Source of the DNA: Promethearchaeota archaeon | GTDB taxonomy: Archaea; Asgardarchaeota; Lokiarchaeia; Sigyniarchaeales; SOKP01 | NCBI GenBank assembly: GCA_048940645.1 | Contig: JBHLOI010000044.1 | Coordinates: forward strand, 1-29,183 | Length of the DNA: 29,183 nucleotides | Direction: 5' to 3' | Part shown: positions 1,078 to 1,777 of the stretch, piece by piece | How positions within the stretch are numbered: position 1 is the first letter of the stretch | Layout of the letters: each line of letters starts with the position of its first letter | Program-made: the position numbers and the translations under genes | The notes under the pieces: generated by a model | Told to the model about the DNA's origin: nothing | The model's input: only the letters and a program-made list of their open reading frames with translations | The model's database searches: none

Positions 1078-1777
1078 CTTTAGTTTTGAACTAATATGTG
1101 GTATAGATGAGGCTGGTAGAATATAAATCAATTCGAATTATATGCTGACAGGCCCCGTCTTAGGACCAATGGTTATTTGTGGGGTTTGTTTTACTAAACA
1201 AAAATTAGATATTTTACAAAAAATCGGAGTTAAAGATTCTAAGAAGCTTTCTCCAACAAAAAGACATGAATTAGCAAATATCATTATAGAAAATTGTCAT
1301 TCTCATAAAATTAAAATAATTGATACAAAAGAAATTGATAATAGAGAAGATCATAGGATTTCACTAAATAGACTTGAAGTGCTTAAATTTGCTGATATAA
1401 TTAATGAATTAAAACCTAGTGTAGTAATATTAGATGCTGCTGATGTTAAAGAAGAGAGATTTGGAGCCTCAATAAAAACTTTATTAAACTACTTTCCTAA
1501 AAAAATTATCTCTAAACATAAAGCAGATGACATTTTTCCAATAGTTTCAGCTAGTTCCATAATTGCTAAAGATACTAGGGATACCCTAATTGAAACTTTA
1601 AAAAAGAGATATGGAGATTTTGGCTCAGGATATCCCTCTGACACAAAAACAATTAATTTTTTAAAAGAGTGGATCATAAATCATAAAGAACCTCCCTTTT
1701 TTGCAAGGAAAACATGGGATACGACAAGAAGACTATTAGATGAAATAGTATATAATAAGAAGATAACTGATTATTAA
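1037..1777 (+). CDS. rnhB: Ribonuclease HII, split into exon 1 (1037/1040/1055..1119) and exon 2 (1150..1777)
   Basis: Exon 1 reads ...FELICGIDEAGR in the same frame as the 1142..1777 ORF (GPVLGPMVICGV, GVKDSKKLS, LDAAD, KHKADDIFPIVSASSIIAK, YGDFGSGYPSD). The start is uncertain: ATG at 1037 or 1040, or TTG at 1055 preceded by GAGG at 1045-1048. All three overlap the end of the upstream gene. Confidence 0.93.
1120..1149 (+). other. Putative bulge-helix-bulge (tRNA-endonuclease type) intron in rnhB mRNA, 30 nt
   Basis: In-frame TAA at 1124-1126. Stem ATATAA(1121-1126)/TTATAT(1138-1143); 3-nt bulges AGA(1118-1120) and ACA(1148-1150) flank the 4-bp helix TGGT(1114-1117)/GCTG(1144-1147). Excision gives GGT AGA GGC CCC = G-R-G-P. 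Confidence 0.8.

Follow-up and report, generated by a model that had tools for sequence, protein, structure and literature searches.

The gene for RNase HII (rnhB) of a Lokiarchaeial genome is interrupted by a short insert at a site that resembles the place of a D-loop intron in tRNA-Ser(GCT) on the same contig. A preliminary description of the contig had proposed that a D-arm tRNA intron spread into the mRNA at this look-alike site, and the question is whether the two inserts share a history or merely occupy similar surroundings. The window analyzed here is the entire contig (29,183 nt), taken from an assembly of 3.83 Mb with 29.8% GC; archaeal core genes (fibrillarin, Nop5, GatDE, TFB, proteasome alpha, exosome) are present. 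The window also contains an SBDS homolog (21514-22305, +) whose N-terminal domain is enlarged by roughly 30 residues, inserted in frame and free of stop codons, as well as three open reading frames without Pfam match (7711-8799, 17040-17522 and 20129-20500, +), the last of which lies immediately upstream of the proteasome/exosome operon.

The insert in rnhB

The following features were assigned to rnhB, of which a single copy was found in the assembly:

1055-1119 (+): exon 1 of rnhB (RNase HII), ending with the DEAG codons and two bases of the Arg codon; predicted start
1114-1120 (+): 5' strand of the BHB central helix, TGGT (1114-1117), and 5' bulge AG^A (1118-1120)
1120-1149 (+): BHB-type mRNA intron, 30 nt, with in-frame TAA at 1124-1126
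1121-1129/1135-1143 (+): inner stem of the intron (inner hairpin 1121-1143)
1130-1134 (+): pentaloop with C-G closing pair
1144-1147 (+): partner strand GCTG, followed by the 3' bulge AC^A (1148-1150)
1150-1777 (+): exon 2 of rnhB, PF01351 RNase_HII (E 2e-44)

The probable start codon is TTG 1055 with GAGG 6 nt upstream (alternatives are ATG 1037 and ATG 1040), and the 5' end of the gene overlaps the 3' end of an upstream HTH gene. Excision of 1120-1149 rebuilds the DEAGR-GP motif of RNase HII, the Arg codon of which is split by the insert; Asp and Glu of DEAG are catalytic residues. The position of the cut is ambiguous by 1 nt, and since the inserts of three relatives start with T and give Arg only if the cut falls after AG^, the register is settled as predicted. 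In this genome the central helix is relaxed, with three G-U pairs, and the minimum-energy fold differs from an exact BHB, so that the assignment of the insert as BHB rests on covariation across relatives.

In 40 of the 82 genomes of the family an insert of 28-31 nt sits at exactly the same site and invariably contains an in-frame stop, while rnhB is uninterrupted in the other 42 and in all eight outgroup genomes compared. These introns are typically 30 nt long and have 26% GC, and at 28-31 nt none of the 40 alleles holds a homing-endonuclease reading frame. Presence of the insert switches at least 14 times on an rnhB tree whose backbone is unresolved; as length and loop motif are common to the alleles, a single early gain followed by many losses is the simplest reading. 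A single LAGLIDADG_3 match on another contig (G000 C83:19956-20180, -; L442, in a 447-codon frame) is linked to neither of the two introns discussed here.

A gap-free alignment of 35 alleles was compared with shuffled alignments and slid controls. Paired cells amounted to 90.7% and two-sided changes were found in 11 pairs, two in the central helix and nine that make up the entire inner stem; these values were reached by 0-1 of 500 shuffles, and slid controls likewise lay far lower. Kinship among the alleles inflates this test, and the direct evidence is a G-C/C-G swap in the central helix. The 4-bp central helix between exon and intron is 92% paired, with two compensatory pairs, the outer helix is 95% paired, and the first bulge base is A in 35/35 and 34/35 alleles. 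The structural features of an EndA-type bulge-helix-bulge (BHB) are found in rnhB: 3-nt bulges on opposite strands, inner and outer helices and a cut after the second base of each bulge that restores the motif. Two EndA paralogs (PF01974) and one RtcB (PF01139) are encoded in the assembly. The insert is therefore very probably a cbf5-like mRNA intron, belonging to a tRNA-type class of about 30 nt that is common in this family of Lokiarchaeia; an (alpha-beta)2 EndA would cut the pre-mRNA and RtcB would join the exons, which would make the split Arg codon of DEAGR-GP whole again.

Two readings dispense with excision. The insert could stay in the RNA, with translation starting from ATG 1142 inside the hairpin or rnhB being a pseudogene. 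This in-frame ATG opens a 211-aa reading frame, an in-frame start codon lies within the insert in 26 of 40 alleles, and joined exons were seen in RNA for neither of the two introns. The sole matching contig (one metatranscriptome, 5% of words) covers 1160-1324 and stops 7 nt past this span before reaching the junction, so that it speaks neither for nor against splicing. A product starting at ATG 1142 would, however, be devoid of both catalytic residues of DEAG (Asp and Glu), 14 of 40 alleles have no start codon inside the insert, and the invariance of the exon 1 codons among alleles, the covarying exon-intron helix and the absence of another rnhB from the assembly all render this reading very improbable. 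Still a little less credit is given to ribosomes bypassing the insert or reading through it: the stop codon at the foot of the hairpin and the predominance of 30-nt alleles, a multiple of three, would suit such a process, but some alleles measure 28, 29 or 31 nt, the two ends of the insert divide the Arg codon (AG + A/G), and A-led 3-nt bulges flanking a covarying 4-bp helix are EndA geometry, identical to that of the tRNA introns of this genome. Even jointly, an unspliced or bypassed insert is improbable.

Resemblance to the tRNA-Ser(GCT) intron site

The second locus and the span compared are:

1110-1159 (+): span of rnhB matching the tRNA-Ser junction through its exon parts 1110-1119 and 1150-1159 (15/20 nt)
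18967-19069 (+): tRNA-Ser(GCT) gene, anticodon at 19021-19023
18984-18987 (+): BHB helix strand TGGT, followed by bulge AG^A; partner strand GCCT with bulge AA^A
18990-19009 (+): D-loop BHB intron, 20 nt, one of a family-wide group of 19-28 nt

Because of its insert, tRNA-Ser(GCT) is mis-called by ARAGORN and stays below the Rfam gathering score. Excision of 18990-19009 yields a normal class II cloverleaf; a U-U mismatch is present in the BHB helix. Of the 111 genomes of the family, about 39 have an insert at the same site; these inserts are mostly 19-20 nt and at most 28 nt long and possess a conserved stem of their own, while 13 scorable relatives have no D-loop insert. In the outgroup, tRNA-Ser(GCT) lacks the intron and its D-loop is not the same. 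A first search pattern for this tRNA was too short and returned mostly chance matches; three patterns applied to outgroups, run without a positive control, gave no match. Across genomes, both introns were found together in 16 cases, the tRNA intron only in 21, the rnhB intron only in 10 and neither in three. The two vary independently and do not preferentially co-occur.

Several further observations concern tRNA genes. In two relatives tRNA-Ser(GCT) carries a 30-nt insert in the acceptor stem at about position 6/7, an unusual site (L135, L136), and in others there are pentaloop-bearing introns in the T-loop (L106, L113). The tRNA-Ser(GCT) loci L095-L136 comprise several covarying acceptor-stem types among close relatives, those of G041 and G030 being unlike that of this genome, which suggests gene replacement or conversion accompanying intron loss. 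Within the window, tRNA-Lys(CTT) (16624-16724, -) and tRNA-Ser(TGA) (16762-16862, -) have anticodon-loop introns of 27 and 18 nt, respectively, and two tandem HisKA-receiver genes (14487-16563, +) lie beside this tRNA cluster. Dense arrays of intron-less tRNA genes in a relative (G055 C54:19101-26270 and C146:5782-7574) possibly represent a mobile element or contamination.

The splice registers proposed initially for both introns hold, as motif and cloverleaf are restored and the T-starting alleles agree, and both spliced junctions indeed read TGGTAG^AG. The likeness of the rnhB site to a tRNA D-loop even extends further than had been described, with 15/20 identity in register over positions -10 to +10 and up to 18/21 between allele pairs of relatives. 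None of 3.44 million other coding positions reaches 15/20 to the tRNA-Ser junction, and genome-wide only other tRNA genes do so; conversely, the top match of the rnhB junction over all mature-tRNA positions is the intron site of tRNA-Ser, in register. One family-wise estimate for the match was P 0.001-0.007. In another, in which 15 sites matched for GC were set against the 32 tRNA junctions, a 15/20 match arises anywhere with a probability of 0.003, one of 14/20 with 0.04 and one of 13/20 with 0.23. Typical intron-bearing rnhB alleles score 13-14/20 (P 0.04-0.2), and the comparison windows were picked after the match had been seen. The resemblance of the two sites is real and modestly improbable.

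Much of this resemblance can be traced to the protein. About 10 of the 20 matches are fixed by the conserved motif E-A-G-R-G-P-V; codon usage alone yields 11.6/20, intron-less alleles score about 12 and this genome marks the upper end of the intron-bearing ones. TGGTAG stands at the junction in 18 of 40 intron-bearing vs. 7 of 42 intron-less alleles. The exon-exon helix comprises 6.7 of 8 pairs in alleles with and 5.4 in alleles without the intron, and as the higher tRNA likeness of intron-bearing alleles coincides with this better helix, it is partly a matter of selection after insertion. The shared helix strand and bulge to which attention had been drawn are present here, but the 5' bulge is generic, since it begins with A in every mRNA intron of this genome (15/15), and TGGT is not conserved in rnhB: 13 of 40 intron-bearing alleles have an NGGG strand with a CCCN-type partner instead, and these score just 12.8/20 against the tRNA-Ser junction. 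A U-G wobble beside the 5' bulge was considered as a sign of kinship and dropped, since 9 of 16 unrelated introns have it too.

Intron bodies and the wider set of introns

If the rnhB intron had been copied from the tRNA gene, likeness might be sought in the bodies. The pentaloop C-RNNTM-G occurs in 36 of 40 rnhB introns, in 5 of 14 other mRNA introns of this genome and in 12 of 17 alleles of other mRNA introns in relatives; among tRNA introns it was found in 1 of 32 here, in 6 of 63 in relatives and in none of 10 Ser D-loop introns, at a shuffled background of 2-5%. When 126 introns were ranked by their similarity to the rnhB introns, those of the Ser D-loop ranked 42-125, and first place went to an mRNA intron of uL11. 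The intron at site C of uL11 agrees with the best rnhB allele at 20 of 23 inner positions, a value reached by 0/400 in a null that keeps the loop and complementary arms, although convergence of AT-rich sequences may also produce such likeness. With 28-31 vs. 19-28 nt the rnhB and Ser D-loop introns differ in size as well, and neither length, composition, loop motif nor ranking gives a sign of kinship between their bodies. For the proposed spread of a tRNA intron into rnhB there is a similar and BHB-compatible site, but no similar intron sequence. Old, fast-evolving hairpins could lose their likeness and tRNA introns of the family are mostly about 30 nt long, so that the mismatch of the bodies makes a link less probable without removing it.

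Whether tRNA likeness is a general property was assessed with at least 15 mRNA inserts from this genome plus eight sites from relatives, of which uL11 contributes four and EF-2 and pyrG two each, 23 in total, and with curated tRNA introns, at least 32 from this genome and 63 from relatives. The former include eight found independently of the BHB motif through spliced alignment to an outgroup or paralog (small GTPase, rnhB, Rag, EF-1alpha, dnaG, purA, mevalonate kinase, phosphatase); the seven remaining ones of this genome were checked by structure and translation, the two longin and the transporter sites being least verified. As the lenient spliced aligner is noisy, an insert was retained only if the sequences on either side of it aligned with strong identity; de novo scans for BHB motifs and for merging of reading frames gave matches no more numerous than geometry controls and serve as leads only. 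The tRNA introns of this genome have a modal length of 30 nt and are located in the D, anticodon, variable and T arms, with two in several tRNAs. Individual mRNA inserts include a near-perfect 30-nt BHB element in a putative GTPase gene (G000 C72:6691-6720, -), confirmed by comparison with an outgroup homolog and with a paralog that lacks the intron, a 31-nt BHB insert with pentaloop between the VIKVE and PP codons of a CoA-transferase-like gene (G000 C126:23289-23319, -), and four insert sites within the short Gly-Pro-rich N-terminus of uL11 (L306, L307, L309, L310, L315, L318), one genome having two.

The expectation that mRNA introns are enriched at tRNA-like contexts was not borne out: the 21 other mRNA sites had a mean best D-arm identity of 11.1 vs. 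11.1 in matched controls, and with rnhB excluded no site agreed with a tRNA intron junction at more than 12/20 (P about 0.85). For the general claim, this is the outcome that the preliminary description had named as refuting. The TGGT helix strand occurs in 1 of 23 mRNA sites, A almost always leads the bulge, and the 8-nt junction word is present 40 times in uninterrupted open reading frames. An excess of short exact junction runs at the non-rnhB sites (P 0.002-0.03) fell to P 0.07-0.12 after matching for flank GC and junction bases and vanished when whole D-arms were tested; against pseudo-junctions within tRNAs a small excess remained (P about 0.025), which we read as a shared junction preference. 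Because these 21 sites stay at null level, tRNA mimicry is not a general route of mRNA intron gain, and spread from the tRNA intron is not the main source of mRNA introns in this lineage.

A few sites nevertheless show some likeness. The junction of the 37-nt insert of dnaG (G000 C83:7122-7158, +) matches the D-loop of tRNA-Ile at 14/20 (per-site P 0.015) and equals that of a tRNA-Leu D-loop intron over 8 nt, making it a mild case of a second, weaker D-loop look-alike. Among the 23 mRNA sites, two pairs reach 13/20 or more vs. 0.29 expected (P 0.03), namely EF-1alpha/EF-2 (15/20, same P-loop codon; G000 C119:4250-4282, +, and the EF-2 paralogs L297 and L300) and uL11 B/C (14/20); furthermore, two PFK intron sites have a common core. 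The duplication that gave rise to EF-1alpha and EF-2 is older than LUCA. The intron bodies of the two show no significant likeness (P 0.34). Such pairs hint at spread between look-alike sites and would also follow if introns commonly favored codons that are rich in Gly and compatible with a BHB.

On this evidence, two origins of the rnhB intron have to be weighed. One is coincidence combined with selection for a BHB, the intron being related to other mRNA mini-introns, and this we hold to be moderately probable: a single gain early in the history of the family would have been followed by many losses, the intron would not derive from the present tRNA-Ser D-loop intron, and the tRNA likeness of its site would be mostly fortuitous, arising from protein codons together with selection that favors a BHB and pairing between the exons. 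What counts against coincidence is that the in-register 15/20 match is the best in the coding genome and that look-alike site pairs exist. The other origin is a homology-guided jump, in which the introns of rnhB and of the tRNA-Ser D-loop are historically linked via look-alike sites that agree at about 15-18 of 21 nt and the bodies diverged later. Such a jump, in any of three possible directions, could have been mediated by DNA repair or gene conversion that made use of the similar flanks, by a nuclease with a target of about 20 nt, or by reverse splicing. In its favor speak, besides the rarity of the match, the dnaG site and the pairs of sites just named, the pentaloop in 6 of 43 tRNA introns (30-nt ones) and the published transposition between tRNAs in Thermoproteales (PMC4090602). 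The dissimilar bodies, the borderline scores of typical alleles in windows chosen post hoc and the null level of the other 21 mRNA sites argue against it, as does an Asgard census with copying between tRNA genes at 1.5% vs. 28% in Thermoproteales (10.64898/2026.10.13.758758); moreover, a greater age of the tRNA intron is not implied, the outgroup tRNA-Ser(GCT) being intron-less with another D-loop. A jump is accordingly regarded as unlikely, and movement from tRNA to mRNA would make up perhaps half to two thirds of that limited probability. Coincidence with selection remains our preferred reading.

Comparison with known intron systems

In the literature searched, the route by which BHB introns reach new sites is described as open, for cbf5 as for Asgard tRNAs. 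As this single genome offers at least 15 candidate introns in mRNAs along with 32 in tRNAs, all of one size class, arrival routes become testable by counting. We tentatively put forward, at low probability, that Lokiarchaeial mini-introns spread across RNA classes by homology-guided jumps between look-alike sites of about 15-20 nt, rnhB/tRNA-Ser(GCT) being one such pair. The occurrence of a few look-alike pairs (rnhB/tRNA-Ser, EF-1alpha/EF-2, uL11 B/C, PFK 1/2) is what spread of this kind predicts, and if true, jumps would provide a concrete route by which Asgard protein-coding genes gain introns from tRNA genes or swap them with these. EndA-type introns are not precursors of spliceosomal ones; any link to the origin of eukaryotic introns is one of analogy, nearer to splicing of the HAC1/XBP1 type.

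In the literature searched, splicing within coding sequences of archaea is documented for cbf5 only, and no report on Lokiarchaeial mRNA BHB introns was found. The intron in the cbf5 pre-mRNA of Crenarchaeota, the origin of which has been called unclear (PMC2738675), resembles that of rnhB as a short BHB intron in a conserved catalytic codon of an essential gene of RNA metabolism, with patchy gain and loss and a two-subunit EndA. It differs in gene and phylum; the rnhB insert belongs to a set of at least 15 in the mRNAs of this one genome, has a conserved inner pentaloop and lies at a site like that of a tRNA intron; splicing has been demonstrated for cbf5, whereas that of rnhB is inferred. 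Non-canonical D-arm tRNA introns have been published for Asgard archaea (PMC11291895; 10.64898/2026.10.13.758758), and the insert of tRNA-Ser(GCT) shares with them the D-arm site, the failure of standard annotation to detect it and repeated gain and loss; the census of these introns offers no general arrival route, mRNA being outside its subject (10.64898/2026.10.13.758758). With the transposition of tRNA introns in Thermoproteales (Fujishima 2010; reviewed in PMC4090602 and PMC4033280), our case has in common the notion of BHB introns moving to new BHB-compatible sites. A BHB-compatible, donor-like site is present in rnhB, but not the body similarity of 80% or more: while near-identical bodies reside in different tRNAs of Thermoproteales, rnhB and tRNA-Ser(GCT) combine alike sites with unlike bodies, and the target is an mRNA.
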